DNA of 64,000 bases from Ignavibacteriota bacterium. Its GTDB lineage: Bacteria; Bacteroidota; Ignavibacteria; Palsa-1295. A model generated the notes under the pieces. That model was not told the origin of the DNA. It saw only the letters and a program-made list of their open reading frames with translations, and did not search any database. Positions 1 through 51,558 of this stretch are shown here, one piece after another (the stretch's first letter is position 1; every line of letters starts with the position of its first letter). The position numbers and the translations under genes are program-made. The stretch covers positions 2,414 through 66,413 of the forward strand of contig CAWCCK010000003.1 in NCBI GenBank assembly GCA_963794025.1, given 5' to 3'.

Positions 1-846
1 TGCTATCACGCGAGCAGATAATGTCGCGGTGTATCTCGAAAAAGTGTGGAGCATTGATCCGACCCGCATGAAGCTCGAACAGCGTGGACTTCCCGAAAAG
101 CCATCCTCGCTTACCGAACAGGATGGTAAAGAAGAAAACCGCCGCGTGGAAATTGCGGCGTCCGATCCCGCTATTCTCGCGCCGGTTAATTCTGGCAGAT
201 ACACAACTAACGACCAATCCGCCCGGGTATGGAATTCGTGCCGAGCGTTCACGCGCAAGCCGGAGTGAAAAATTGGGATATGTACGTCACGCAGCCCGTG
301 ATGACGCTCTATCACGAACATGGAATCGGAAGTAAACCGAAGACGTGGGACTGGGATCTTAGTTCCGTCTCTGCGAAGATACCGCGTACCGAAGATACGA
401 TCGAATATGGCCTGACCATTACCGATTCCACCGGACGCGAAGAAACCACGATAGGAACGATTCCCGTTCGCCAGAAAACGATCAGCAAGAAACGTTTGGA
501 ACGATTGAAGGATAAGATCATCGAGCGGTACACCCTCGTGCTGTTCGATTTCGGTTCCTCGAAGATCGATCCCCAAAATCAGCGCGCCATCGACTACATT
601 CGCAAGCAGATCACGCCGGGAACCTCCACCTACATCACCGGCTATGCCGACCGCACCGGCGAGGAAGCCCTCGATCAGCAGCTCACCGAAGACCGCGCCA
701 ACGCCGTCGCTAAACAGCTCGGCGCTACGGATTACGTAGCAAAGGGCGTCGGTAAATCACAACTGCTCTTCGATAACAATACGCCCGAAGGCCGCTTCTA
801 TTCCCGAACGGTTAATATCACGCTGTATAAGACGATCAATCAGTAG
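1..846 (+). CDS. OmpA/MotB-family protein, 3' part. First OmpA_C-like domain ends ...NRRVEI in frame 2 (ORF 29..268); second OmpA-like domain is in frame 1 (ORF 229..846). Apparent frame discontinuity at about 200-268.
   Basis: NRRVEI motif and a second domain (LVLFDFGSSKID...GYADRTG...RANAVAKQL) typical of the OmpA C-terminal peptidoglycan-binding fold. The paralog at 59277..61487 has the same two-domain order in one continuous frame. Confidence 0.6.
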
Positions 847-849
847 GAC

Positions 850-945
850 TGTCTGAACCATGATTTTAGGAGATTTTGGAGATTAAGAATGATAGGACTA
901 CCATCTAAATAATCTCTAAAATCTCCTAAAATCATGGTTCAGACA
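850..945. repeat. Hairpin (MITE-like) element, family B. Near-perfect inverted ends TGTCTGAACCATGATTTTAGGAGATTTT / AAAATCTCCTAAAATCATGGTTCAGACA. Likely also acts as a terminator for the convergent flanking genes.
   Basis: 27-bp inverted repeat read directly. Same termini recur at 13997-14020 and 31145-31273. Confidence 0.7.
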
Positions 946-2047: not shown

Positions 2048-3082
2048 ATGCGAGGAACAACCTTACTGACACAAAACCGATTCGAAGCCACGCACCGCGA
2101 AACCTTCGACGATGGCTGGGAAACGCTATCCGAAGAATTGCCGGTGCTGCAAACGCAATTTATTCCGGATCACGCGAAGAGCATTCTGTTCAAGAATGAC
2201 AGTCCGGATATTCCGACGGCGTACTCGCTAAATGCGTATCGCGGGTGCGAGCATGGCTGCGCATATTGCCGCGCCAGACCGTACCATGAATATCTCGGAT
2301 TCAATGCCGGCATTGATTTCGAAACGAAAATTATGGTCAAGCACGACGCGCCGGAATTGCTGCGTAAGGAATTTAGCAATCCGCACTGGATGCCGCAATC
2401 TATTATGATGAGCGGCAACACGGATTGCTATCAGCCCGCCGAGCGTGAACATAAGCTGACGCGGAAACTGCTGGAAGTATTTCTGGAATTTCGGAATCCG
2501 GTGAGCATTCTTACGAAGAACGCGCTCATCCTGCGCGATCTCGATCTGCTGAAAGAACTTGCGGAACTGAATCTTGTGCGAACGATGCTTTCGATCACTT
2601 CGATAGACCCAGAACTTCGCCGGAAACTCGAACCGCGTACTTCTACTGTAGATAGGAAATTCAAAGCGATGGAAGAGCTTGCCAAAGCGAATGTGCCCGT
2701 CGGCGTGATGGTCGGGCCGATCATTCCGGGACTGAACGATAACGAAGTTCCACAAATTCTGAAACGGGCGAGCGAGAACGGCGCGAAATGGGTCGCGCAT
2801 ACGATCTTGCGCTTGCCCTACGCCGTTGCGCCGATCTTTACGGATTGGATCGAGAAAAATTATCCGGAAAAAGCAGGCCGTGTAATGACGCGCATCCGCA
2901 TGATACGAGGCGGGAAATTAAACGATCCCAACTTTGGAACGCGCATGTCCGGCATCGGCGGCTACGCAGATTACATGCACAACGTCATCAAAGTGCTATC
3001 GCTAAAATATGGCATGACGGGTCACCGGGAACCGCTATCTGTGGATCAATTCCGAAGAGCCGGCGCGTGGGGGTTGTTTTGA
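2048..3082 (+). CDS. splB: Radical SAM protein, spore-photoproduct-lyase-like DNA repair enzyme (SplB / COG1533 family).
   Basis: CxxxCxxC cluster in YRGCEHGCAYCRAR plus downstream SPL-family conservation. Confidence 0.8.
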   Translation: MRGTTLLTQNRFEATHRETFDDGWETLSEELPVLQTQFIPDHAKSILFKNDSPDIPTAYSLNAYRGCEHGCAYCRARPYHEYLGFNAGIDFETKIMVKHDAPELLRKEFSNPHWMPQSIMMSGNTDCYQPAEREHKLTRKLLEVFLEFRNPVSILTKNALILRDLDLLKELAELNLVRTMLSITSIDPELRRKLEPRTSTVDRKFKAMEELAKANVPVGVMVGPIIPGLNDNEVPQILKRASENGAKWVAHTILRLPYAVAPIFTDWIEKNYPEKAGRVMTRIRMIRGGKLNDPNFGTRMSGIGGYADYMHNVIKVLSLKYGMTGHREPLSVDQFRRAGAWGLF

Positions 3083-4972: not shown

Positions 4973-5101
4973 GCCTCCCCCGCGCACATTCCGTTTGCAA
5001 GTGAAAATATATAACGACGTGAGCATGGAGGTACATAAACCTGTTCTCTCATGTTTTTCATCCCCGTCGTCCGAAAATGTATTATATTTGTCTATGCTAT
5101 T

Positions 5102-5113
5102 ATAGGCACCTAT
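5102..5113. promoter_or_regulatory. Palindrome ATAGGCACCTAT overlapping the dinB start codon. Candidate operator; TATATTTG (-7-like element) lies about 25 bp upstream.
   Basis: 12-bp inverted repeat ATAGG-CA-CCTAT, also present upstream of ssb and the zeta-like gene. Confidence 0.45.
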
Positions 5114-6398
5114 GAATCTCATCCTCTGTCATCTCGATATGGACGCGTTCTTCGCTTCGGTCGAAGAAAAGCACGATCCGAGCCTGCGCGGGAAACCCGT
5201 GCTGGTGTGCGCCGGCCCGGTGGGTCGCGGCGCGGTTGCCTCGTGCAATTATGTGGCGCGGCGGCTGGGCATAAAAACGGGCATGAGCACACAGGAAGCG
5301 ATGCGTCAATTTCCGCAAGCGGTTCCCGTGCGCGCGAATTACGAGCGGTATCAGGAGGCGTCCGAGCAAATCCTGCGGATCATCTACCGTTTCACCCCGG
5401 ATGTCGAGCCGCTTAGTTTGGATGAATCGTTTTTCGAATTCACGCACGTTCCGCGCTGGCGGGACGATCCGCTTGGGGCTGCTCAGGCCATTCAGCGCGC
5501 GATAGACGAGGAACTTCACCTCAGCTCATCCATCGGAATTGCAAGCGGGAAAGTATTAGCCAAAATTGGGAGCGATTTTAAGAAGCCGCATGGCATTACC
5601 CAAGTGCCGTTTGGTTACGAGCAGGATTGGATCGCCACGCTGCCCGTCGAAGCCGTGCCCGGCGTCGGACACGCAACGGAACGAAAACTTAAAGAGCTTG
5701 GCATTGAAGTATGCGGCGATATTTGCCAAATGGCTCCCGGCGTGCTGCGTAAGCTGTTCGGGAATGTACACGGGACATTTCTCTGGAACATGGCGCATGG
5801 CCGCGATGCGCGTCCGCTCATGAAACGCGGCGCGGCGAAATCCATTTCGCATCAAAGCACGCTGCAAAAAACGACGACGGATAAAGACTATGTGGAATCG
5901 CTCTTGCTCTACATCGCCGAGCGCTGTCTCTGGCGTTTACGGACGAGCAGCATGAGCACACGCAGCCTTTCCATCTATATGCGGTTCGCCGATCAACGAT
6001 TCGCGCAACGGGCCACGCATCTAAAAATTCCCACGCAATCGGAGCAGGTTATCTTCCCGCTCGTCTCAGAAATGACGCGCGAGATCTGGCTTGCAAATCC
6101 ACGCCCGCGTGTGACGTTCATCGGTGTGCATCTCTCGGATTTCCAACCCACCACGCCGCAGGAGAAATTATTCTTCGACGATACAGAAAAGAAAGAACGC
6201 CTTTCGCGCACGATGGGGAATCTTCGTGAAAAATTTCACTCCCCCATTGTTACCAGCGCGCGAACGTTTGGATTGCATCATTCCTATCGCCTCTCGCAAG
6301 CCGGACTTTCGTTCAGCACGGCGAGCGTCGAGGGAAAAGAAGCGGAAGAAATGCTGAAACGAGAAGCAGAGAAATTTATGGCGATGGAAACGGCATAA
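5112..6398 (+). CDS. dinB: DNA polymerase IV (Y-family translesion polymerase).
   Basis: N-terminus ILCHLDMDAFFASVE and the ImpB/UmuC fold throughout. Confidence 0.9.
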   Translation: MNLILCHLDMDAFFASVEEKHDPSLRGKPVLVCAGPVGRGAVASCNYVARRLGIKTGMSTQEAMRQFPQAVPVRANYERYQEASEQILRIIYRFTPDVEPLSLDESFFEFTHVPRWRDDPLGAAQAIQRAIDEELHLSSSIGIASGKVLAKIGSDFKKPHGITQVPFGYEQDWIATLPVEAVPGVGHATERKLKELGIEVCGDICQMAPGVLRKLFGNVHGTFLWNMAHGRDARPLMKRGAAKSISHQSTLQKTTTDKDYVESLLLYIAERCLWRLRTSSMSTRSLSIYMRFADQRFAQRATHLKIPTQSEQVIFPLVSEMTREIWLANPRPRVTFIGVHLSDFQPTTPQEKLFFDDTEKKERLSRTMGNLREKFHSPIVTSARTFGLHHSYRLSQAGLSFSTASVEGKEAEEMLKREAEKFMAMETA

Positions 6399-6604
6399 TA
6401 AAAAAATAATATGGCTTCGGAAACCAATTTACTCATTTTGGGTTTCCATAGTTCTTCACAGAGTGGTTCATCGTGGCGATCCAGTAAAAATGATGGGTAA
6501 CGATACAATGAATTCATAATCTGCTGGATCGAAACCTTAGCGATAAATGAGCGTATCGTGCCTTTGGAAACTAACGAATCGATTCTGGTTTCCTCAGATT
6601 CCTC

Positions 6605-7303
6605 ATGCATCCAGACTCCACTATCGTTAAACCGACTACCGATCTCCGCAGCCGCATCGTCGATGCGGCACGAGAGCTTTTTCACGAGCATGGGTATTCG
6701 AAAGTATCGGCCAGCGAGATCGCGCAGGCTATCGGTATCAGCAAAAAGACGCTGTACCGCGAGTTCGAAACGAAGGAGGATATTCTTCGCGCCGTCATTC
6801 TGCCGAAGCTGAAAGAATCGGCAAAAAAGATCGATTCGATCCTTGCCGATCGCGCGATGCCGTTTCTGGATAAGCTGAAAGAAGTGATGTCCATGATCGG
6901 TTTTCAGCATCAGCGGGTTTCGCCGGTGCTTTCGCGCGATGTGTTCATTCACGCGCCGGAAGTGTGGCGGGAAATTCACGAAGTGAAACAAGCGCGATTC
7001 CGAAAATTCGGAACGCTGATCGAAGAAGGAATCGAACGCGGAGTATTTCGCTCGGATGTTCCGGCGGAAATCATTTTACGCAGTTATACGGCAGCCGTCG
7101 AGAGCCTAATGGTTCCGCAAACGCTCAGCGAGCTTCCTTGCACGGCACAGGTAGCGTTTCAAAGTTTGATTAAAATTTTATTCGAAGGCATTTTGGAAAC
7201 CGACGCGCGAAAAAATCTTCTGAAGCGGAAAACACCGCTTAAGAAGAACACGCGCCCCGTGGCAACGCGGTCACGCAATAAAAAAATAGTTCATTCGTCA
7301 TAA
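6605..7303 (+). CDS. TetR/AcrR-family transcriptional regulator.
   Basis: HTH YSKVSASEIAQAIGISKKTLYREFETKEDIL. Lies upstream of the efflux operon. Confidence 0.8.
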   Translation: MHPDSTIVKPTTDLRSRIVDAARELFHEHGYSKVSASEIAQAIGISKKTLYREFETKEDILRAVILPKLKESAKKIDSILADRAMPFLDKLKEVMSMIGFQHQRVSPVLSRDVFIHAPEVWREIHEVKQARFRKFGTLIEEGIERGVFRSDVPAEIILRSYTAAVESLMVPQTLSELPCTAQVAFQSLIKILFEGILETDARKNLLKRKTPLKKNTRPVATRSRNKKIVHSS

Positions 7304-7326
7304 TAGCATTTTAAATCGTCTGATTA

Positions 7327-8388
7327 GTGTCAGACACTTTTTTCATCAATCGCATGGCAGAAACAAATACGGAAGAGCAAGTCAAAATAGAAAAAAAAGG
7401 CATCGTGCGCAGAGCGCTCCCCTTTCTTTTCCTGGCCATTCTTATCGCAGCCGGAATTTACGGCTGGCACATTATCCAATATAATAAAGTTCACGAGAAC
7501 ACGGACGATGCGCAGATCGATGTCGATGTGACGCCGATCATTCCGCGCGTGGCCGGTTTCGTGGCCGCTATTCGCGTCAACGATAACGACCGCGTGGATT
7601 CGAACGAGCTGCTCGTCACGCTCGATACGAATGATTTATCGCTAAAGATAAAATCAGCGGATGCGGCGCTTGCGAATGCTCAGGCCTCCGCGCTCTCTGC
7701 TGAGGCATCGGCTTCGGTTGCGCGCGCAAATGTTGTGACCGCAACCGTCAGCCGCCAAAAAGCTGCGGACGATCTCGCTCGCGCAAACGGCCTCTTCGCC
7801 GGCAGCGCGATCACCAAGCAGCAATTCGATAATTATAAATCCGCAGATGAAGTTGCCGAAGCGCAGTTAAAAAGCGCAAACGACATGGCCTCGGCATCCG
7901 AAGCGCAAGTGGCTGTTGCGAAATCGCAGATCGGGCAAAAGCAGGTCGATCTCGAAAATGCAAAATTGCAGATCACGTATGCCACTATCATCTCGCCGGT
8001 CGCGGGAATCGTAGCAAAACGCAATGTGGAAATTGGCGAATACATTCAAGCCGGTCAGCCGCTGATGGCTGTAACGCAGGGCGATATATGGATTACTGCG
8101 AATTTCAAAGAAACGCAATTATTTGACATGCACCCCGGTCAGCGCGCCGAGTTTGTAGTCGATGGCTACCCGGATTCGACATTCCACGGCACGGTGCAAT
8201 CCATCTCACCGGCTACGGGCGCGAAATTTTCGCTGTTGCCGCCGGATAATTCCACCGGCAATTTCGTAAAAGTTACCCAGCGCGTGCCGGTGAAAATTCT
8301 TGTCGATCGCGAGGATTATTCCAAATCCCCGCTCCGACCCGGCATGAGCGTGGATGTTACTATCGCTACAGGTGGCGATAAAAGGTAA
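7327..8388 (+). CDS. HlyD-family membrane fusion protein (EmrA-like).
   Basis: N-terminal TM, coiled-coil region, C-terminal beta-barrel motifs (…NFVKVTQRVPVKI…). Confidence 0.85.
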   Translation: MSDTFFINRMAETNTEEQVKIEKKGIVRRALPFLFLAILIAAGIYGWHIIQYNKVHENTDDAQIDVDVTPIIPRVAGFVAAIRVNDNDRVDSNELLVTLDTNDLSLKIKSADAALANAQASALSAEASASVARANVVTATVSRQKAADDLARANGLFAGSAITKQQFDNYKSADEVAEAQLKSANDMASASEAQVAVAKSQIGQKQVDLENAKLQITYATIISPVAGIVAKRNVEIGEYIQAGQPLMAVTQGDIWITANFKETQLFDMHPGQRAEFVVDGYPDSTFHGTVQSISPATGAKFSLLPPDNSTGNFVKVTQRVPVKILVDREDYSKSPLRPGMSVDVTIATGGDKR

Positions 8389-8479
8389 GAAGTAACAGGT
8401 AAGAAGTAAGAGGTACGAATTATAACAATTCTCTTCTTAGCACTATAGCACTCAGCACTTTAGCACTTAATACTTCCCC

Positions 8480-10033
8480 GTGGCAGAACAAGGTTTTCGT
8501 AAATGGATCATCGTCATCACCGTGGTTACCGCCGCAGTGATCGAGTTGATCGACACGTCCATCGTGAACGTAGCGATCTCGAACATGAGCGCCTCGCTTG
8601 GCGCGACGATCGAGGACGTCGCGTGGGTGATCACGTCCTACGCGATCGCCAACGTCATTATCATTCCCATGACGAGTTTTCTCGGCGGCCTGTTCGGGCG
8701 CCGGAATTATTATGTGTTCTCTATTCTGCTCTTTACCGCATCGTCGTTCTTTTGCGGGAACTCGCATACGCTGATAGAACTCGTGTTTTTTAGATTCATG
8801 CAAGGGATCGGCGGAGGCGCGCTGCTCTCCACATCGCAATCCATTCTCTTCGATACCTTCACGATCAAAGAACGCCCGATGGCCGCAGCGATCTTTGGGT
8901 TGGGCGTGGTTATCGGTCCAACGATCGGGCCGACGCTCGGCGGATGGATCGTCGATAATTTCACCTGGCCGTGGATCTTTTTCGTAAACATTCCCATCGG
9001 CATTACGGCAGCCATCCTTTCTTGGACGTATGTAAAAGAACCGAAGGATCTGCGAAAGGTAGGGCGCATCGACTGGGAAGGAATTGTGCTGCTGATCGTT
9101 GGGATCGCCTCGCTGCAATATGTGCTTGAGCGCGGCGAAACCGAAGACTGGTTTAATTCCCGTACCATTGTATCACTTACCGTGACGTCCGTCATTGCGC
9201 TTATCTTGTTCATCTGGCGGGAACTGACAACGGAACATCCCGTCGTGGAGCTTCACGTGCTCCGAAGCCGGACGCTTGCGTCGTGCGCCTTCCTTACGTT
9301 CATTATCGGCTTTGGGTTATTCTCTTCGGTATTCGTCATTCCCATCTTTGCGCAGCAACTATTGGGATATACGGCGATGCAAACGGGTTTGCTTTTGCTT
9401 CCGGGCGCGATCGTTACGCTGTTCGTCTTGCCATTTGTTGGTAAGATACAAGAGCGCGGATTATCGCCGCAGCTCATGATCTTCGTCGGATTTGCGCTCA
9501 CCGCCGTCTATACGTTCATGCTTTCTCGCATCAGTCTCGATGCGGGATGGTGGACCTTTTTCGGACCGCTCGTTATTCGCGGCATAGGATTACCGCTCTG
9601 TTTCATACCCATTACGACGCTCGCCGTTTCGGGATTGAATCCACGCGACATTCCACAAGGCGTTGCGCTGAATAATATGATGCGTCAATTAGGAGGATCG
9701 TTCGGCATTGCGATCGTCAACACCTATTTGGTGGATCGGATGGCCATTAATCGCGTTGGGCTGATCTCGCACGTCACGCAATATGGCGTGGCCACGCAAC
9801 AGCGGCTCACTGGGCTGGTGCAATCGTTCGTTTCAAAAGGCTCGACGCTTGCGGTTGCTAAACAACAAGGGCTTGCCGCGCTCGATGGGATGGTCACGCG
9901 GCAAACAATGATAAAAAGTTACCTCGATATTTTTGTTTTTGTGACGATCTTTTTCGTTGCGTGTTTGCCGCTTATTCTGACCATCCGTAAAGGCAAAGTC
10001 GCGGTGTCGGCAGAAATGGCGTCGGCGCATTAA
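8480..10033 (+). CDS. MFS drug:H+ antiporter, DHA2 family (EmrB/QacA-like, 14 TM).
   Basis: Characteristic DHA2 N-terminus (IVITVVTAAVIELIDTSIVNVAI…). About 14 hydrophobic segments. Confidence 0.85.
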   Translation: MAEQGFRKWIIVITVVTAAVIELIDTSIVNVAISNMSASLGATIEDVAWVITSYAIANVIIIPMTSFLGGLFGRRNYYVFSILLFTASSFFCGNSHTLIELVFFRFMQGIGGGALLSTSQSILFDTFTIKERPMAAAIFGLGVVIGPTIGPTLGGWIVDNFTWPWIFFVNIPIGITAAILSWTYVKEPKDLRKVGRIDWEGIVLLIVGIASLQYVLERGETEDWFNSRTIVSLTVTSVIALILFIWRELTTEHPVVELHVLRSRTLASCAFLTFIIGFGLFSSVFVIPIFAQQLLGYTAMQTGLLLLPGAIVTLFVLPFVGKIQERGLSPQLMIFVGFALTAVYTFMLSRISLDAGWWTFFGPLVIRGIGLPLCFIPITTLAVSGLNPRDIPQGVALNNMMRQLGGSFGIAIVNTYLVDRMAINRVGLISHVTQYGVATQQRLTGLVQSFVSKGSTLAVAKQQGLAALDGMVTRQTMIKSYLDIFVFVTIFFVACLPLILTIRKGKVAVSAEMASAH

Positions 10034-10073
10034 CGGGAAATTATGAATCCGCCGCGGCGGAGAATTATGAATT

Positions 10074-11387
10074 ATGAAATCTGAAATGAGAAAACTTGGA
10101 ATTATTATCACGATCCTTTTGGGAACCGCTTCCGGCGTGTATGCCCAAAGCGGCGATACGCTTACGCTCACCCTTTCCCAAGCGGTAGCGATGGCGATCA
10201 AGCATTCGCCTTCGCTCGAAGCGGGCACGGCGGCGCTCGATCAGGCAAAGGCGCAGTATAACGAAATCGCATCGTATGCGCAGCCGACCCTGTTCGGCGA
10301 TGCGAGCTACACGCGCATCGATCCGGTTATTTCGATCCCGTTCGGGAACCAGATTTTTGTAACGCAGCCGAATAATAATTACAACGGTCAATTCACACTG
10401 CAACAGCCGCTGTGGACGTTCGGCAGATTAGACGCCGAAGACCGGGTTGCAAAAAGCAGTATCGTGAGCGCTGCCGATAATCTCGAAGCCTATAAAGCGA
10501 TGGCTGCGTATGGGACGACGCAGATCTATTATTCGATCCTGACGACCGATGAAGGCATTCGCGTGGAACAAGATCAGGTAGCCGTGCTTAAATCTAATCT
10601 TTCGGACGCCGATGAGCGCGAACAGCAAGGAACCGCAACTTCGCTCGATACGCTGAACATTCAGGCGCGTATTTCACAGACGGAAAGCGAAATTGCCGAT
10701 CTCCAATCGAGCCGGCGAAAACAAGTTGCCGGTTTGCGCCGAATGCTCGGAATGGCGCCGGGAACTCCGATCAACGTGACACGCCCTTCGCAATCTTCTT
10801 CATTGCCGGAAGATGCGATCGTGCTCGATTCCATTGCCGATAAACAGCGACCAGAGATCACCGTCGCCGAAGACGCCGAAAATACCGCGCGCCTACAGAT
10901 CGACGCCACAAAAGAAAGCAACGACCCGCTTCTTTCCGCTAATGTCACCGGCGGATATAGAGATGGTTACTTACCAAATCTCACGCAAGGCAAACTCAAC
11001 TGGACGGGCGGCGTCGATCTCCACATTCCGATCTTAGACGGCGGACGCACATCGGCACAAGTGGATGAAGCCCAAGCGCAATACCGCGAAGCACAGGCAC
11101 ACACCGAGGACGTGAAGCTTGGAATAGAAAACGATGTCGAGCAGGCACTTGCCGATCTTCAATCGAGCCGTTTGCGTTTGAAACTTACGGATGTGCAAAT
11201 TCAGCAGGCGCAGCACGCGTACGATGTTGCGGTGGTGCGTTACAAAAACGGCGCGGCCACGAATTTGGATGTCCTTACCGCACAAAGCGCGCTCGAACAA
11301 GCAAAGCTTCAGCAGGCTCAGTTGATGTTCTCATTGGAACTTAGCCAGTATAATTTGAATAAAGCCATCGGGACTGCGATGTGGTAA
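10074..11387 (+). CDS. tolC: TolC-family outer-membrane efflux protein.
   Basis: Signal peptide. Duplicated coiled-coil/beta-barrel repeat structure. Operon context TetR-HlyD-MFS-TolC. Confidence 0.85.
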   Translation: MKSEMRKLGIIITILLGTASGVYAQSGDTLTLTLSQAVAMAIKHSPSLEAGTAALDQAKAQYNEIASYAQPTLFGDASYTRIDPVISIPFGNQIFVTQPNNNYNGQFTLQQPLWTFGRLDAEDRVAKSSIVSAADNLEAYKAMAAYGTTQIYYSILTTDEGIRVEQDQVAVLKSNLSDADEREQQGTATSLDTLNIQARISQTESEIADLQSSRRKQVAGLRRMLGMAPGTPINVTRPSQSSSLPEDAIVLDSIADKQRPEITVAEDAENTARLQIDATKESNDPLLSANVTGGYRDGYLPNLTQGKLNWTGGVDLHIPILDGGRTSAQVDEAQAQYREAQAHTEDVKLGIENDVEQALADLQSSRLRLKLTDVQIQQAQHAYDVAVVRYKNGAATNLDVLTAQSALEQAKLQQAQLMFSLELSQYNLNKAIGTAMW

Positions 11388-18825: not shown

Positions 18826-18841
18826 AGTAATGAGTGGATGA

Positions 18842-18911
18842 GTACCAAGTACCAAGTACCAAGTACCAAGTACCAAGTACCAAGTACCAAGTACCAAGTA
18901 CCAAGTACCAA
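18842..18911. repeat. Heptanucleotide microsatellite (GTACCAA)x10, directly followed by an inverted repeat GTACCGAGCACCGACCAACTCGGTAC.
   Basis: Direct read. Lies in the 5' leader of purS, between pssA and purS. Confidence 0.9.
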
Positions 18912-18957
18912 GTACCGAGCACCGACCAACTCGGTACTCGGTACTCATCACTTGGTA

Positions 18958-21764: not shown

Positions 21765-22133
21765 AATTAGGAATGGAGAATTAGGAATGGAGAATTAGAA
21801 ATTGAGAATTAGGAATTAGGAATGTGGATGATCCGATAAAGTCCAACCTGTCATCCTGAGCGGAGTTTGTCACGACGCGCATCGACCACGATGCTTGGAG
21901 TGAGGAACGGAGTCGAAGAATCTCATGCAGTTACGCTTAGTGGTGAATGTCCGGAGATCCTTCGACTCCGCAATCCGATGCTTCGAGCATCGTCGACGAT
22001 GCGGGTCGAATTGCTCCGCTCAGGATGACATCTTAATCTAATCTGTGTCAGCCATTCTTAATTCTTAATTCTTAACTCTTAATTCTTAATTTATAAATCC
22101 CCTATTCTTCATTCTTAACTCTTAATTCTTCAT
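21765..22133. repeat. Composite repeat: family A MITE copy 3 (21850-22029, 180 bp) flanked by inverted simple-repeat arms (AATTAGGAATGGAG)n on the left and (ATTCTTAATTCTTAACTC)n on the right.
   Basis: Direct read. The arms are roughly reverse complements of each other, giving a large potential cruciform between recJ and the 7TMR-HD gene. Confidence 0.7.
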
Positions 22134-22176
22134 TGATAAGGACACCTTTTGCCATACTGCATTAGTTGCAAGCTGG

Positions 22177-27024: not shown

Positions 27025-28131
27025 TTGACACGCCTTGTTTCTGTAATAGTGAGTTCATATTCATCCATGAAGCACGAAAGCCATAAAGTGAAGCCCACTC
27101 GCCCGTTCGCGTTCCTCGCCGCGTGCCTATTTTTCTTCATCCTTTATACTTCATCCTTCATCCTTGTCGCAAAAGCGCAGGATGTAAATGAATCGGCGCG
27201 CGCGGCGCTTTCGGATATTTTGAACAAGCCGCTTAGTCCGCGGGCGGCGGCGTTGGGAAACACGTTCGTCGCGATGCCGAACGACCCGAACACCATCTTC
27301 AGCAATCCCGCCGCACTTTCGAGCATCGTCGTCACGGATTCCGACCGGATGAACGATATTTCCGTAAGCTACACGCATTACGTGCTCGATATTAACGAGG
27401 GCGCGGTCGTGTATGAGCATCCGGTTCCCGAGAACATTCTCTTTGCTGGGAATTTTGCTGCCGGCGTACAGTATTTCGATGGAGGAACGTCCACGCAAGC
27501 CGATAACACCGGCCAAACGCTCGGAACCTTTAACACGGAAGACGTCGCATTCCTGCTCGCCTATTCCAGTACCGCTTCGAACGGCTTGCATTATGGCGCG
27601 ACGGCGAAAGTAGTTAGTTCCAGCCTTGTTTCGGGTTCCTCGGTACAGAATTATGGCGCGACATGGATCGCTGCCGATCTTGGTCTCTATTACGAATGGG
27701 CGAAGGAACGCATGACCTTCGGGCTTTCCGCGCTCAATTTGGGCGGGGAACTTTCGAAGTACGACAGCGTCGGCGAACCTGTTGGGCCGGACGTTCAGCT
27801 TGGCGCGACCATCAAGCCGGAGCATTTGCCGCTTACCCTGGGACTCGATTTCCATAATCTCACTCGCAATCTTGAAGGACACAATCTCTTCTATGCCTTC
27901 GATGATTTTTCCATTGGCGCCGAGTTCGCGATGGGTAAAGTGGTGCGTTTGCGGTTTGGATACGAGAACGAACTGCGCCACGAACTTAACGTTCCCGCGG
28001 GCAACGGATTCGGCGGGTTCTCCGGCGGCGTAGGACTGCACATCAAACGCTACGACATCGACTTCGCCATCGACGACGAAGGCCCGGATTTCACTCCCTT
28101 CGTAAGGTTTGGATTGAGAACGGATTTGTAG
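27025..28131 (+). CDS. Outer-membrane beta-barrel protein, PorV/PorQ/PorP-like (possible T9SS-associated).
   Basis: Signal peptide. N-terminal motif …AALGNTFVAMPNDPNTIFSNPAALS… and alternating beta-strand pattern. Low-certainty family call. Confidence 0.35.
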   Translation: MTRLVSVIVSSYSSMKHESHKVKPTRPFAFLAACLFFFILYTSSFILVAKAQDVNESARAALSDILNKPLSPRAAALGNTFVAMPNDPNTIFSNPAALSSIVVTDSDRMNDISVSYTHYVLDINEGAVVYEHPVPENILFAGNFAAGVQYFDGGTSTQADNTGQTLGTFNTEDVAFLLAYSSTASNGLHYGATAKVVSSSLVSGSSVQNYGATWIAADLGLYYEWAKERMTFGLSALNLGGELSKYDSVGEPVGPDVQLGATIKPEHLPLTLGLDFHNLTRNLEGHNLFYAFDDFSIGAEFAMGKVVRLRFGYENELRHELNVPAGNGFGGFSGGVGLHIKRYDIDFAIDDEGPDFTPFVRFGLRTDL

Positions 28132-30978: not shown

Positions 30979-31352
30979 GGCTCCGCCACTTGGGGCTGCT
31001 TCCCCTCGCGCGGATTGTGCCGTCCCCCCAGTCAAGCTGAGGGCAGTCGTGCCACTTGAGCAGCGGCGCGGCGGTCCGCCGCGGCGGGTGCCCTCTGGGC
31101 CGCATCCTCTCTCTCCAGCGCCTGCCCTCGGCCAGATCGGGAGAAGTCTGAACTATGATCCTTCGACAAGCTCAGGACAAGCTTATGTGATTCGTGTGAT
31201 TGGCTCGATGATTGGCGTAGCATGGAAATCATGTCTCAATCCAAATAATCACACGAATCATAGTTCAGACAATGGGCTGCGGGTACATCCTTCGGCAAGC
31301 TCAGGACGGCTCCGCCACTTGGGAATGCTTCCCGACGCGCAGATTGTTCGTC
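30979..31352. repeat. Repeat-rich GC-rich non-coding block. 46-bp direct repeats GGCTCCGCCACTTGGG..TGCTTCCC..CGCGC.GATTGT.CGTCC at 30979-31024 and 31308-31352. They enclose a family B hairpin element (31145-31273; termini GTCTGAACTATGAT / ATCATAGTTCAGAC) and the motif CCCCCAGTCAAGCTGAGGGCAG (also at 32378-32400).
   Basis: Direct read. The track ORF 30947..31369 here is probably spurious. Confidence 0.6.
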
Positions 31353-31372: not shown

Positions 31373-32147
31373 TTGAATACCATGCAACGAACCGGAATCA
31401 CCCATCTCATTTTTTCGTGCTTCGTTGCGCTGGTATTGTTAATTCCCACTCGTGGCTTCGGCTGGGGTAAGGATGGTCATGCGGCGATTGTGCGGCTTGC
31501 ATTTCAGCTCATGCCAGCCGCGCAGCGGGAGCGGCTTTATGCCATCCTCGACACCACCGATCCGTATTACATCGGCAATTGGGCGGATTGGTATGCCCGC
31601 AAAGAATATCCTGAGTCGAAGCCGTGGCATTATGTTGACATCCCGGCAGATGCCACGAAATACCGTTCCCTCCCGCGATTGCGGCGATGATGGCTGCATT
31701 CTTTCGGAACTTCCTCTGCTGGAACAGGAACTAAAGAAAAAGCGCCTATCCTTCACCGATCGCCGTGAGGATATGCTGTATTATTTCCATTTTCTCGGTG
31801 ATCTTACTCAACCGTTCCATACGTTAGGTCCCACCGGCGCTACCGACTTGCATGTGAAATGGCATGGGGAAAGACAAACGCTGCATCGCGTGTGGGATGA
31901 AAGTATCATTCTTGAGCATGAGATAGACACGGTCGCTCTTCTGAAACTGGCGCGCTCGATGCAATCGGAACCGCTCGAAACCGATTATGCGAAGATCGCG
32001 ATGGAAGGCCACAGGATCGCAGTCCAAAATCTGGTTGATGAGGGTGTTCGCCTCCCAAATAATTACACGGATGAGAAATGGCCCATCGTCGAACATGCCC
32101 TCATTGAGGCCGCGTTGCTGATCGTGGCGAAGACGAAGGATATGTGA
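31373..32147 (+). CDS. S1/P1-family nuclease (secreted), with an apparent frameshift at about 31660-31690 (frame 2 to frame 3).
   Basis: Signal peptide plus GWGKDGH…WHYVDIP in ORF 31373..31690. Continues as DCGDDGC…HFLGDLTQPFH…LHRVWD in ORF 31452..32147. Confidence 0.7.
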
Positions 32148-32196
32148 TTCCTGCCTCAATTTTTTTGGGAATCGCTTGCTTTTGGGTTTTGAATGT

Positions 32197-32227
32197 ATTA
32201 TATTAGGTGGTGAGATGATAGGCACCC
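32197..32227. promoter_or_regulatory. TATATTAGGTGGTGAGATGATAGGCACCC. Extended match to the motif upstream of the zeta-like gene (half-site of the ATAGGCACCTAT palindrome).
   Basis: Sequence similarity to 1831-1862. Confidence 0.3.
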
Positions 32228-32665
32228 TTTGGGGCAAAGATGAAATAATAAAGATGAAAGATGAAGAGGTCGGGGAAATGTAAGAAATCGGGAACATAGT
32301 TTTCACAGGGAAATTAATGAAAAGTTGATGGAAAACTGCATAAGTTCATGAAGCACAAATGCGTTTTTTTGTAAAGGCACCCCCAGTCAAGCTGAGGGCA
32401 GGCTCTATTGCTGAAAGACAACTGGCGAAAATAGCTTGGAAACGCCACACTTCATGAAGCACAAATGCGTTTTTGCAAAATCATACCGATCGCGAATGCC
32501 TTCCGGACACAAAGTATATAATTTTGCTTTCTGCGAGAACGCTGCGAGAGCTGTCTCGAAAAAGCTACAGTTTATGAATTATGAATTCAAAAAAAAATAA
32601 TGATTGAGAGAGGCTGAAGGCTGAAGGTCAAAAATCATTGCTGAAACGCTCTTGGGTTTTGCGCG

Positions 32666-34265
32666 TTGAATGGTGGAATGACTAAAGGCAATATTCTCTG
32701 GGTCGATGACGAGATCGACCTGCTGCGACCGCATATTATGCTGCTCGAAGGGCGCGGCTATACCATTCGCACTGCTCTGAGCGGTGAAGATGCGCTTGTT
32801 ATCGCTTCCGAGCAGCCTGTCGATCTGGTTTTTTTGGATGAGAATATGCCGGGTATGGGCGGTTTGGAAACGCTCGAACGGCTGAAAGCGGTGCGTCCCG
32901 AAACGCCCGTCGTGATGGTGACGAAATCGGAAGAAGAAGACCTGATGGAGCAGGCGATCGGGAAGAAAATTTCGGATTATCTGACGAAACCCGTCAACCC
33001 GACGCAAGTGCTGCTTGCGGTGAAGAAATTTTTGGAGGGCCGGCAAATTGTGAACGAAGCCGTCTCGCGGGATTACACGCAGGAATTCGCGCGTATCTCG
33101 CTCGACCTGATGAATGCTTCGACTGCGAAGGACTGGACGGAACTATATGCGAAGATCGTCGGCTGGGAAATGGAATTTGACGAGCATACGGGACTTGGTT
33201 TGAAGCAAACACTGCTCGATCAGAAGCGGGAAGCAAATGCAGAGTTCGGGAAATTTGTCGAGCGGCATTACAAAGACTGGGTCAATACGATCTATGTGGA
33301 ATCGAATGCGGCGAACCGGCCGGCGATGTCGCCGGATATAGTCGAGCAATGGGTGCTGCCGGAACTGCAATCGGACGCGAAGCAGAATGTGGTATTTTTC
33401 GTGATCGACTGCATGAGGCTGGATCAGTGGCTGATCATGGAAGCGGAACTCCGTAACCTGTTTAAGATCACGCGGAACTATCATTTTGGTATTCTTCCGA
33501 CAGCCACGCCATACGCGCGGAATGCGATCTTTTCGGGAATGTTCCCATCGGAATTCGGGAAGCTGTATCCGAACATGTGGTCATCGAAGGATGATGACGA
33601 GAGTTCGCTGAATCGGGATGAAGCCGATATGCTGCATAAGTTATTGGATCGAAAGCGCATTAAATTGCGGCAGGAGATGAAGTATATTAAGATCATCGAC
33701 CGCGATTATGGCGCCGGTATCGCGCAGAATATCTCGAATCAGGCGAAGAACCATTTCACAGCCATTGTGGTGAACTTTGTTGACATGCTTGCACATACGA
33801 GAAGCGATTCGCCGATCTTAAAAGAGATCGCGCCGGATGAAAGTGCGTATCGTTCCCTTACGCGGTCGTGGTTCATGCATTCGAGTTTATATCGATATGT
33901 TCAAATCGCTGGCCTCGGTGCCGAATTTGAAGATCGTCGTATCGACGGATCACGGTTCCATCCGCAGTTTGCGAGGCGCGAAAGTGATCGGCGACCGCGA
34001 GACCTCGACCAGCCTGCGCTACAAATATGGCCGGAACGTGAAAGCAGAAGAAAAGCAAGCGATGATCATCAAGCATCCGGAAGAGTATAAACTTCCCGTT
34101 CGCGCGAACGCAACGAACTATATCATAGCAAAAGAGGATTATTATTTCGTCTATCCAACCGACTACCACAAATACCTGAATTACTACCGCGATTCGTTCC
34201 AGCATGGCGGCATTTCGATGGAAGAGGTGATATTGCCGGTGGTGACGATGGAACCTAAATCTTAA
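32666..34265 (+). CDS. porX: PorX-like response regulator: CheY receiver fused to a PglZ / alkaline-phosphatase-like domain. Apparent frameshift at about 33880-33900.
   Basis: Receiver motifs (ILWVDDE…DLVFLDENMPGMGG…KP). PglZ region split between ORF 32666..34090 and ORF 33837..34265 (…KIVVSTDHGSIR…QHGGISMEEVILP). Confidence 0.75.
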
Positions 34266-38383: not shown

Positions 38384-38430
38384 GTTTTTCTTGCGCCGCA
38401 CATTTTTCGTCGTATATTGTATAAATTTTA

Positions 38431-38442
38431 ATAGGCACCTAT
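38431..38442. promoter_or_regulatory. Palindrome ATAGGCACCTAT 14 bp upstream of the ssb start codon. Candidate operator.
   Basis: Identical 12-mer to the dinB site. Confidence 0.45.
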
Positions 38443-38455
38443 TCAATAAAACATC

Positions 38456-38929
38456 ATGGCATTTAGCATTAACAGAGCAACATTAGTCGGAAACGCGGGC
38501 AAAGACGCGGAAATTCGTTATACGGGTTCGGGAGCGCCGGTCGCATCCTTTACGATCGCGACCACGGAAAGCTGGACGGACAAGGCTGGTCAGAAACAAG
38601 AGCGAACCGAATGGCACAACATTAAAGCCTGGAATTGGCTTGCGGAATACTGCAACGAAAACGTGAAAAAAGGAAAGCGCGTCTTAGTCGAAGGCCGAAT
38701 TACAAACCGCAGTTACGACGATAAAGATGGCGTAAAAAAATATATTTCCGAGATCGAAGCCTCGACGGTAATGACGATGGAACGCACTGCCGCCGGCAGT
38801 GGGCAAGCTCCTGCTCCGTCAGGATCAAACTATCGTCCGGCAAGCGCCCAGCGCCCGGCGCCACAATCTACAGCTCCGGAACCGGAATATGAGCCGCAGG
38901 ATGCTCCGGTGGATGATCTCCCGTTTTGA
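38456..38929 (+). CDS. ssb: Single-stranded DNA-binding protein.
   Basis: OB-fold N-terminus (…LVGNAGKDAEIRYT…TEWHNI…). Gly/Pro/Gln-rich linker. Acidic C-terminal tail DDLPF. Confidence 0.9.
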   Translation: MAFSINRATLVGNAGKDAEIRYTGSGAPVASFTIATTESWTDKAGQKQERTEWHNIKAWNWLAEYCNENVKKGKRVLVEGRITNRSYDDKDGVKKYISEIEASTVMTMERTAAGSGQAPAPSGSNYRPASAQRPAPQSTAPEPEYEPQDAPVDDLPF

Positions 38930-50619: not shown

Positions 50620-50628
50620 TAACGGATA

Positions 50629-51558
50629 GTGTATAGTGGAAAGTGGATAACGGATAGGAGAGGTCACTTTGCGTTTGGCATTGTGGTTGCGTTTCTGCTT
50701 TTTATTTCGTCTGTGGCGCATAGTCAGCTATCGCACCTTGACGATTCTATTTTTGCCGCAAAAATAAAACAAGCAAAGGCAGAAAAAATAGACACGCTCC
50801 CCATCGGCGAACGCATTGCTGCGATGGGCAAGCTTTTTCTGGGAACTGTGTATGTTGCTCACACGCTTGACGAGGATGCGTCGAAAGAACGCTTAGTCGT
50901 CGATCTACGCGGCTTCGATTGTGTAACCTTTTATGAGAACATGCTGGCGTTTGCGTGGATCATCCGTGAATTTGAACATCCTACCATATCGAATTTCGAA
51001 CAAGCACTCATGCTCCTTCGCTATCGGAATGGAAAGATCGATGGTTTCCATTCTCGTTTAAATTACACGATCGATTATTTTTATAGTAACGAGAAAAAGG
51101 ATGCACTTACTGTCAGAACTCACCAAGTTGGCGGGCAATATGCAAGGTATGATGACCGCGAAATCAATTTCATGACGACTCACCGTTCGCTTTACAAACA
51201 ACTCGCAACAAGCGATTCAGAATATAACGTGATGCTTCAAATCGAGAAAGATATTCACGCGCGAAAAGATTTTTATTATATTCCCAAAGCAGACATTCCT
51301 AAAATTGAATCAAAGATTGAGACCGGTGATATTCTTGGCATTACTACGAATATCCCCGGCTTGGATTGTTCACACACAGGAATTGCAATTCGAATGCAGG
51401 ATGGTCGGATACATTTCATGCATGCTTCGAGTTTAATGGGGAAAGTGATTATTAGCGATGAACCACTATCCGATTATTTGACGCACAGCAATCATCAAAC
51501 TGGAATCATCGTTACGCGACCTCTCGACTATAATCTACATGTTCATTTTAAACTATAG
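50629..51558 (+). CDS. DUF1460-family protein (secreted; papain-like / amidase-like fold candidate).
   Basis: Signal peptide, then …LFLGTVYVAHTLDED…LVVDLRGFDCVTF… conserved block. Confidence 0.5.
   Translation: MYSGKWITDRRGHFAFGIVVAFLLFISSVAHSQLSHLDDSIFAAKIKQAKAEKIDTLPIGERIAAMGKLFLGTVYVAHTLDEDASKERLVVDLRGFDCVTFYENMLAFAWIIREFEHPTISNFEQALMLLRYRNGKIDGFHSRLNYTIDYFYSNEKKDALTVRTHQVGGQYARYDDREINFMTTHRSLYKQLATSDSEYNVMLQIEKDIHARKDFYYIPKADIPKIESKIETGDILGITTNIPGLDCSHTGIAIRMQDGRIHFMHASSLMGKVIISDEPLSDYLTHSNHQTGIIVTRPLDYNLHVHFKL

Follow-up and report, generated by a model that had tools for sequence, protein, structure and literature searches.

Promoters of the window that carry the 12-mer

The DNA under study, hereafter the window, comprises a 64-kb stretch of contig CAWCCK010000003.1 from an Ignavibacteriota bacterium, and harbours a repeated 12-nt sequence in front of DNA repair genes, which is examined here as a candidate SOS box, that is, the operator of the LexA repressor. 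The core ATAGGCACCTAT occurs exactly at positions 5102-5113 (site 2) and 38431-38442 (site 3), the variant ATGGGCACCTAT maps to 1851-1862 (site 1) and a degraded copy, ATAGGCACCctt, to 32218-32229 (site 4), all of them on the + strand; the original prediction, which had reported this repeat, proved exact in both sequences and positions. A TATATT hexamer precedes the four copies at a distance of 12-13 nt, and the composite TATATT-N-RGGCACC shows exactly four occurrences in the window. Allowing up to one mismatch, the 12-mer finds 3 matches as compared to 0.11 expected, a number reached by none of the shuffled sequences (0/100).

Site 2 lies in the promoter of its target, dinB (5112-6398, + strand), which encodes a DNA polymerase IV (Pfam IMS, IMS_C and IMS_HHH; NCBIfam DNA polymerase IV), and the core runs into the start codon, its last two bases being the first two of the ATG at 5112. 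The putative -10 box, or Bacteroidota-type -7 box, of this promoter (TATATTTG, 5083-5090, + strand) is found 13 nt upstream of the core, with a candidate weak left arm ATGC at 5094-5097 (+ strand), and a simple sigma-70 scan of the dinB promoter gave no good -35 element. The G at the eighth position of the -10/-7 box is shared by ~75% of 81 related sites, and the form TATATTnG fits the TAnnTTTG type of Bacteroidota. Site 3 belongs to the promoter of ssb (38456-38929, + strand; Pfam SSB, TIGR00621), the gene of the single-stranded DNA-binding protein, where the core ends 13 nt before the ATG at 38456 and follows a -10 box TATATT (38413-38418, + strand) located 12 nt upstream; no recognisable left arm is present in this promoter.

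Site 1 had been placed upstream of a zeta-toxin-like gene, an assignment that was not borne out. The zeta-toxin-like gene (1149-1823) lies on the minus strand and is missing from the syntenic locus L057, whose neighbouring genes are ~70 bp apart, and the promoter is on the + strand and faces a PA0069-family radical-SAM gene (SplB-like, COG1533-type; 2048-3082, + strand; NF033668, 460 bits). For these reasons site 1 is taken to serve the radical-SAM gene, and the association with the zeta toxin is incidental. The promoter itself (TAAACA-18 nt-TG-extended TATATT, 1808-1837, + strand) is the sole full sigma-70-like match on the + strand between 1700 and 2100, and promoter and box are near-identical in loci L107 and L057. 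A 65-aa open reading frame (ORF) at 968-1165 of the window (690-887 of locus L001) lies beside the zeta-toxin-like gene and is also missing from L057, and both genes look like a toxin-antitoxin-type module inserted between an OmpA-like gene and the radical-SAM promoter.

In site 4, positions 10-12 of the core are changed and the score falls below threshold with a matrix made from other genomes (described below), which suggests a box that is probably weak or inactive. The region 32197-32227 had been described as a half-site with extended flanking similarity; it corresponds to a complete promoter plus box, with a -10/-7 box TATATTAG at 32199-32206 (+ strand), in which the last three bases of the box are mutated. 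The same promoter carries an intact ATAGGCACCTAT in the relatives L037 and L054. Downstream of site 4 there is a noncoding stretch of ~440 nt, followed by a response-regulator/PglZ gene (32666-34090). Next to this site, the S1/P1 nuclease gene (31373-32147) falls into two ORFs that overlap (31373-31687 and 31443-32144), which may reflect a frameshift or a pseudogene; an intact orthologue in L041 and L064 lies behind a box-bearing promoter plus leader.

Recurrence in the Kapaibacterium lineage and the LexA protein

The pattern TATATT-N12/13-ATRGGCACCTAT was scanned over 185,579 species genomes and gave at least 108 matches. Among the matches listed, 83 fall in 21 metagenome-assembled genomes (MAGs) of the Kapaibacterium lineage, with up to 15 in a single MAG, and in all 83 the TATATT spacing and the CCTAT end are imposed by the pattern itself. 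The other 25 listed matches are single, spread over Firmicutes, Proteobacteria, Flavobacteriia, archaea and others, and mostly intragenic; as a rough estimate, ~70 matches would be expected by chance for an 18-base pattern in 596 Gb, and these scattered matches are at about chance level. The 21 MAGs are labelled as Candidatus Kapaibacterium, Ignavibacteriota/Ignavibacteriae, Bacteroidetes/Bacteroidota or simply 'bacterium'. According to NCBI, Kapaibacterium belongs to the Bacteroidota (class Eximiradiia, family Kapaibacteriaceae), its MAGs being often labelled Ignavibacteriota or Kapabacteria, and the SSB and LexA homologues of this analysis appear there as 'Candidatus Kapabacteria'. The window derives from an organism of this kind and is syntenic with one of the 21 MAGs at locus L024 (MFD05512.bin.2.5), with 79-87% nucleotide identity over 5072-10499.

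Taking as downstream gene the first substantial ORF past each site of the lineage, the scan places the motif before lexA three times (L005, L025, L069), before recA four times (L011, L018, L074, L078; the exact site sequence is here ascertainment-biased), before dinB three times (L024, L052, L070) and before PA0069-type radical-SAM orthologues three times (L008, L044, L057). It is also found before recQ (L103), comM/yifB (L019, L085), S1/P1 nuclease genes (L041, L064), and genes for a PD-(D/E)XK protein (L021), LigT (L082) and VOC/glyoxalase proteins (L029, L091). SplB-type radical-SAM, ssb, recQ and dinB genes are reported SOS members in neighbouring lineages, the radical-SAM genes in both Bacteroidetes and Balneolaeota (PMC8565304, PMC7739468). 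The enrichment upstream of recA, lexA, dinB and ssb, which had been named beforehand as the decisive test, was therefore positive in the relatives, and the sites at these four genes support the idea of a LexA-type SOS box.

Five further sites, in different MAGs, lie directly before N6/N4 DNA methyltransferase genes (L028, L062, L084, L092, L108), which suggests either damage-inducible DNA methylation or the presence of restriction-modification or mobile-element genes under this box in the lineage. Moreover, 9-10 box-bearing promoters precede genes of an uncharacterised protein family with up to five paralogues per MAG (L104 2130-3134, L063 4751-5449, L026, L032, L033, L045, L068, L016, L048 and L072). 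These monocistronic genes code for proteins, here called 'YINT', with common motifs (..VLYINT.., ..IINSWEFAS.. and ..GGIGKLA..) and without any Pfam, NCBIfam or PHROG match, and their RAD51/KaiC-like traces are insignificant. An assignment as ImuA was rejected in view of the lack of a family match and of imuB or dnaE2 downstream, and the proteins are a candidate new SOS family.

As the scan pattern had imposed the spacing and the CCTAT end, promoters were fetched by protein homology alone. The lexA set consisted of 12 metagenome loci, seven of them with readable upstream DNA, plus three regions from homologue look-ups, and 9 of the 10 readable upstream regions carry the box 13 nt past a -10 element (L110, L111, L113, L114, L116, L118, L129, L130 and L131; LexA 60-85% identical). 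The sole exception, L121, which lacks the box, encodes a LexA only 33% identical. The boxes found at lexA comprise ATGGGCACCTAT, ATAGGCACCTAT, ATAGGCACCTGC, ATGGGCACCTGC, ACGGGCACCTGC, ATAAGCACCTGC, GCGGGCACCTGC, ACGAGCACCTAT and GTGGGCACCTAC, and extra copies are present ~60 nt downstream in L129, just upstream of the -35 element in L130, and in tandem every 15-17 bp in L116, L118 and L131. The ssb set included the window and seven SSB homologues (91-60% identical), which share one gene arrangement, S8 peptidase to ssb. All eight intergenic regions (8/8) keep just GTATATT and A-Y-A-GGCACC-N-A-Y, with the box AYAGGCACCNAY conserved across them, while the rest has diverged. Similarly, the dinB promoters of four genomes (window, L024, L070, L052) keep the box between diverged flanks. 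A weight matrix built from 13 lexA and ssb sites of other genomes only recovers exactly three sites in the window, those of dinB (23.6 bits), the radical-SAM gene (25.3 bits) and ssb (27.4 bits), the next best hit scoring 14.4 bits.

That a short AT-flanked palindrome recurs by chance could be argued from the length of the motif, only 12 bp, and from the pattern ATAGGNNCCTAT, which with one mismatch finds 3 matches in the window as compared to 0.83 expected, a number reached in 3/100 shuffles. However, the 12-mer itself far exceeds its expectation, its four copies share strand and a fixed distance to TATATT, its massive recurrence is confined to one lineage, and the window sites are recovered by a matrix from external genomes. 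The window counts, the genome scan, the ssb footprint and the external matrix together refute this explanation, which retains practically no weight.

The LexA encoded by the relatives combines a LexA_DNA_bind domain (PF01726) with a Peptidase_S24 domain (PF00717), aligns over its full length with Escherichia coli LexA (E = 3.5e-37), and keeps the Ala-Gly cleavage site (VGRVTAGAP), the serine (GESM) and the lysine (TVKTF). A homologue search gave 92 proteins, several of them named LexA of Kapabacteria. A non-canonical LexA box had been suggested as one possibility: the regulator linked to the motif is a canonical LexA, and the unusual part is the binding sequence. In MAG OY969726.1, the box stands at lexA (L129), dinB (L052) and ssb (L126).

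Alternatively, the motif could be the operator of another damage or stress regulator, with lexA as merely one of the targets. In favour of this are the asymmetry of the site, the presence of methyltransferases and numerous noncoding elements in the regulon, and a sequence unlike any of the motifs CTGT-N8-ACAG, CGAAC-N4-GTTCG, GTTC-N7-GTTC, GGA-N5-TCC, CTAA-N5-TTAG and TTAC-N3-GTAA or the direct repeat of Balneolaeota. On the other hand, strong divergence of LexA motifs between lineages is documented (PMC8565304), and in bacteria at large a motif placed before lexA, recA and error-prone polymerases has regularly proved to be a LexA site when found by this comparative method (PMC8565304, PMC7739468). 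The canonical LexA of the lineage is, from its residues, predicted to be cleavage-competent, and the sites show no consistent link to the gene of any other regulator, which makes a different regulator unlikely.

Two further observations were made at the lexA loci. A small ORF (78-98 aa) lies directly 3' of lexA at every lexA locus examined (L129 2196-2477, L130 2214-2450, L131 2223-2519, and after 7099 in L025), with a conserved C-terminus ..RLxxLCxxLRA[KR]Y and no family on record; it may code for an SOS effector, such as an inhibitor of cell division, that would be transcribed together with lexA. In addition, the lexA leaders of the close clade (L025, L069, L110, L111) show a hairpin after the box, GCTATGAG-N8-CTCATAGC, whose stem in L069 differs in sequence yet keeps the pairing, and which may be a conserved leader structure of lexA.

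Anatomy of the proposed operator and noncoding leader units

Over all the sites fetched by homology, the invariant part is RRGCACC, whereas the outer arms vary (AT, AC, GC or GT on the left; TAT, TAC, TGC, AAT or CAT on the right) and TG never replaces the CA at the centre. The mini-palindrome ATAGG/CCTAT, which had been proposed as the site of a dimeric repressor, is thus probably not the dyad recognised. The information profile of 81 sites reveals conservation beyond the 12-mer solely to the left (G-8, T-7, R-6, C-5, T-2 and G-1), where positions -8 to -5 match GTGC with an average of 2.2/4, as compared to 0.4-1.5 (mostly <1.1) in other registers. This signal keeps the same distance from the box (-8 to -5) in promoters with either a 12-nt or a 13-nt spacer, indicating that the left arm belongs to the box and not to the promoter; a transcription-start signal tied to the -10 box was rejected on the same grounds. 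All box-bearing lexA promoters have [GA]TGC at the left arm, and those of recA mostly GTAC. These data suggest, as a better description, an operator of ~16-20 bp, GTGC-TTTG-ATRG-GCAC(CTAT), with a dyad GTGC-N8-GCAC of which the 12-mer would be the strong right part. At ssb and at the upstream extra copies the left arm is absent and the right half stands alone.

Several other interpretations of the sequence were discarded. A sigma-54 promoter (-24 TGGCAC / -12 TTGC) shares the GGCAC, but none of the four window sites has GC or TTGC at the required distance of 10 nt, and the motif lies downstream of a -10 box. An RNA hairpin between AUAGG and CCUAU would need an impossible 2-nt loop. In a 5'-terminal hairpin GGUGC...GCACC, the left arm would fall at or before the predicted start, and it is missing at ssb and dinB, so this pairing is better read as a dyad in DNA.

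Roughly one third of the box-bearing promoters in the related MAGs drive a noncoding unit of ~200 nt, with no abutting gene. These units follow a common order: GGCACCTAT, three to six copies of a 7-nt repeat (GATGAAA, AATTAAG, AATTACG, TATGAAG and others), GGGG, GTTCATTGAAAAT, TTTCGTTATGAACGAGTTC, a variable hairpin, GGCGAAAAYAGCTCGGAAACGAGGG and TCGGGAACTCACAAGAAAAAGAAATGGCACCTATTTCTTGGAGGAAC. The GGCGAAAAYAGCTCGGAAACGAGGG segment contains a GNRA-type hairpin, and the units carry a GGCGAAA..GCTCGGAAACGAG hairpin and the palindromes GTTCATGAAC and GAACGAGTTC as well as a second GGCACCTATTTCT copy just before a Shine-Dalgarno (SD)-like GGAGG. Both palindromes resemble LexA boxes of the GAAC/GTTC type and were considered as the 'real' LexA box, a candidate rejected because neither occurs in the promoters of dinB and ssb or in those of lexA and recA from the close clade. 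A box lies ~140 nt upstream of nearly every unit core. Units were located in L002, L009, L031, L034, L037, L054, L076, L081, L090, L093 and L096-L100, and at least 13 copies occur in MAG MFD04780.bin.1.147, some of them in tandem, with the 3' GGCACCT copy of one starting the next.

The window holds two degraded examples. The 185-nt leader between the box of site 1 and the radical-SAM start (1863-2047, + strand) shows TATGAAG repeats at 1882-1901 and a degraded element that ends in CAACTATTTCTGGAGGAAC just before the ATG, and aligns with 18 element copies from related MAGs. The leader after site 4 (32230-32665, + strand) contains AAAGATG repeats (32236-32265), two degenerate units, an internal AGGCACC (32375-32381) and the palindromes GGCGAAAATAGCTTGGAAACG (32424) and TTCATGAA. 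Rfam 15 gave no match at gathering score in the window, and with the limit relaxed to E <= 5 neither 32100-32720 nor the L081 element yielded anything relevant. Applied to 19 element copies, RNAalifold gave -2.6 kcal/mol without covariation and paired just the two GGCACC copies, a trivial result since these copies are near-palindromic.

These units bear on the possibility that the motif acts in RNA, with GGCACCUAU as a 5'-leader or unit-boundary signal for processing, stability or protein binding. Copies downstream of the -10 box are co-oriented with transcription, almost all 200-nt elements close with a second copy, AAATGGCACCTATTTCT, directly before the SD-like GGAGG, a copy of the AAATGGCACCTATTTCT type begins each new unit in the tandem arrays, and the lexA leaders of distant relatives hold two to four tandem RGYACCTG copies. 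However, second copies overlap or lie just upstream of the -35 element in L006, L008, L010, L013, L095, L104 and L130, and L008 also carries a tandem pair, with 11 bp between the copies, upstream of a -10 box. The copies at or upstream of these elements are outside the transcript, which points to recognition at the DNA level. One copy, in L012, is inverted, the box-anchored GTGC arm sits around or upstream of the predicted start, and no conserved RNA structure, covariation or Rfam match was found in the searches described above. Regulon content and the site before lexA are, moreover, the signature of a LexA operator, and a purely RNA-level role is accordingly considered unlikely.

The abundance of the units also raises the question of whether the 12-mer could be a by-product of a repeat family, carried in a mobile or recombining promoter-leader cassette with only a secondary relation to repair genes. 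The 13 or more near-identical copies of promoter, box and 200-nt unit in MFD04780.bin.1.147, some of them tandem, would fit such an origin, as would the similarity between copies upstream of the promoters and the occurrence of elements before unrelated genes. Nevertheless, the single-copy ssb, lexA and dinB promoters keep the box in place while their flanks diverge, and since this occurs in orthologous promoters it argues for purifying selection on the box itself and is the opposite of a recent insertion. Neither dinB nor ssb carries any element, and the set of repair genes is far too specific for chance. The repeat origin is in consequence very unlikely. A target-site duplication as the source of the 5' and 3' box copies was rejected, as the 3' copy keeps its own consensus AAATGGCACCTATTTCT whatever the 5' copy.

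As to the units themselves, they could be a family of damage-inducible leaders or small RNAs, a mobile cassette with an SOS promoter, or further sites at which LexA acts as a roadblock. At least 13 of the up to 15 scan matches in one MAG are strong, putatively LexA-controlled promoters fused to modular ~200-nt units starting with GGCACCUAU, and the motif exposes an unexplained spread of noncoding repeat elements driven by SOS promoters. A more speculative possibility, doubtful though conceivable, is that the site anchors a lineage-specific invention in which GGCACCUAU would be both a LexA half-site in DNA and a unit boundary or recognition signal in RNA. If this were the case, the lineage would have either a damage-inducible family of leader or small RNAs, or a mobile cassette whose SOS promoter brings whatever gene lies downstream into the SOS response.

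The window is unusually rich in arrays with a 7-nt period, which are not confined to box-bearing promoters (1882-1901, 8379-8419, 10062-10078, 18841-18916, 21765-21823, 22054-22134, 27135-27165, 32236-32265 and 50624-50657), with units such as TAAGAGG, AATTAGG, ATTCTTA (11 copies), AGTACCA (11 copies, 100% identity) and GATGAAG. A short repeat family, ..TTCGACAAGCTCAGGACAAGC.. / ..CAGTCAAGCTGAGGGCAGGCTCTATT.., is dispersed in intergenic DNA of the window (31020-31060, 31160-31185, 31290-31330 and 32384-32410) and in L007, L009 and L049, and an inserted GACCACGATTTACAGGATTCTCAGGATTA interrupts the 7-nt arrays of L030, L046, L061 and L099.

A probable LexA operator and its relation to known systems

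Altogether, the 12-mer is likely to be the high-information right part of the SOS box, or LexA operator, of the Kapaibacterium lineage. This reading rests on the observed conservation, the position after the -10 box, the lineage restriction, the regulon content, the site at lexA, and the domain and catalytic residues of LexA, from which we infer LexA binding, the transcription start, repression and induction by damage. The position after the -10 box is fixed in the four window sites and in the lexA and ssb promoters fetched by homology. In the proposed mechanism, a canonical LexA dimer, with its winged-helix and self-cleaving S24 domains, would bind 12-13 nt downstream of the -10/-7 box and cover approximately +7 to +18 of the predicted start, which would block the initiation or promoter escape of the RNA polymerase. 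Once DNA is damaged, LexA would cleave itself under stimulation by RecA, which would free dinB, ssb, the PA0069-type radical-SAM gene and the other members of the regulon. Of the two halves of the full operator, the right one (RRGCACC) would be invariant and the left one (GTGC, GTAC or GTGA) weak and anchored to the box, and the lone right half at ssb would fit a weak repression of a gene that needs a high basal expression.

Several points weigh against a LexA operator. The case is built from sequence, and no lexA is found in the 64-kb window, the presence of LexA being known from relatives, of which OY969726.1 is the nearest lexA-bearing MAG with known dinB and ssb sites. The site is strongly asymmetric, its copies are co-oriented with transcription and its centre is never inverted from CA to TG, which is unusual for the operator of a dimer, and the half-site centres of the mini-dyad AGG-CA-CCT are 5 bp apart, a spacing judged too close for two winged-helix domains. 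The extra GGCACCT copies ~200 nt downstream, at the 3' ends or junctions of the leader units, leave room for a role in RNA, many sites drive noncoding repeats, and some precede genes with no obvious repair role, such as sdhA (L039), enolase (L073) and ABC transporters (L040, L102). Finally, the spacing and the CCTAT end of the 83 genome matches were set by the search pattern.

The novelty of the proposed operator would lie in the sequence of the SOS box, the known part being its regulator, LexA. No description of a LexA motif from Kapabacteria or Ignavibacteria was found in the searchable literature. LexA motifs differ by lineage, and with each new motif the SOS regulon of the lineage in question becomes readable from sequence alone. 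A canonical LexA with a previously undescribed operator inside the Bacteroidota would also be relevant to the timing and mode of the replacement of the regulator in this phylum, and the motif offers a handle for predicting damage-inducible genes in uncultivated MAGs, among them the methyltransferases, the multi-paralogue family and the small ORF 3' of lexA.

A close parallel is the system of gammaproteobacteria, where the LexA box CTGT-N8-ACAG (E. coli consensus TACTG(TA)5CAGTA; PMC9578287) is a canonical LexA operator that overlaps the promoter, as the proposed one would, lexA is autoregulated, and recA, dinB and ssb belong to the regulon. If the dyad GTGC-N8-GCAC is right, both boxes would share a 4-N8-4 geometry with a T-rich centre, and in both systems some promoters have several boxes of graded strength. 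However, the half-sites differ (CTGT/ACAG as compared to GTGC/GCAC), and the Kapaibacteria box has one near-invariant extended half (ATRGGCACCTAT) and a weak or missing second half, with an orientation fixed to the promoter.

In the Bacteroidetes, which in current taxonomy belong to the same phylum, no canonical LexA was known at the time of a 2021 study, phage-like substitutes with a CI-like helix-turn-helix (HTH) being used instead, and their LexA-like motifs are GGA-N5-TCC and CTAA-N5-TTAG (Sanchez-Osuna et al. 2021, PMC8565304). The overlap between the regulons includes dinB, recA, ssb, the SplB-type radical-SAM gene and recQ, and those short palindromic operators were found by the same comparative logic. 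Nevertheless, the two motifs are unrelated to the Kapaibacteria box and do not fit ATRGGCACCTAT, and the regulator linked to it has a LexA_DNA_bind domain in place of the CI-like HTH. The Balneolaeota, a neighbouring lineage of the FCB (Fibrobacteres-Chlorobi-Bacteroidetes) group, do possess a canonical LexA, whose regulon contains lexA, recA, polymerases IV and V, a helicase and a radical-SAM gene, and which tolerates a non-palindromic box, the direct repeat TTACACATATTTTWTACATA (Kilic et al. 2020, PMC7739468). Sequence and architecture are, however, unrelated to those described here, and no TTACACATATTTTWTACATA-like direct repeat is present at any of the four window sites.

Another LexA of the FCB group offers a possible lead, as the box of Fibrobacter succinogenes reportedly reads TGCNCN4GTGCAT (Mazon et al. 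2004). In that form, its outer TGC and GCA would be 8 nt apart, as in the TGC-N8-GCA of Kapaibacteria, whereas the inner positions would be NC/GT as compared to TT/GG. As for the leader units, a multi-copy repeat family with a LexA box before each copy has a counterpart in the REP13E12 repeats of Mycobacterium tuberculosis. These are coding sequences of ~1.4 kb, whereas the Kapaibacteria elements are noncoding, ~200 nt long, modular, sometimes arranged in tandem, and equipped with 7-nt repeats.

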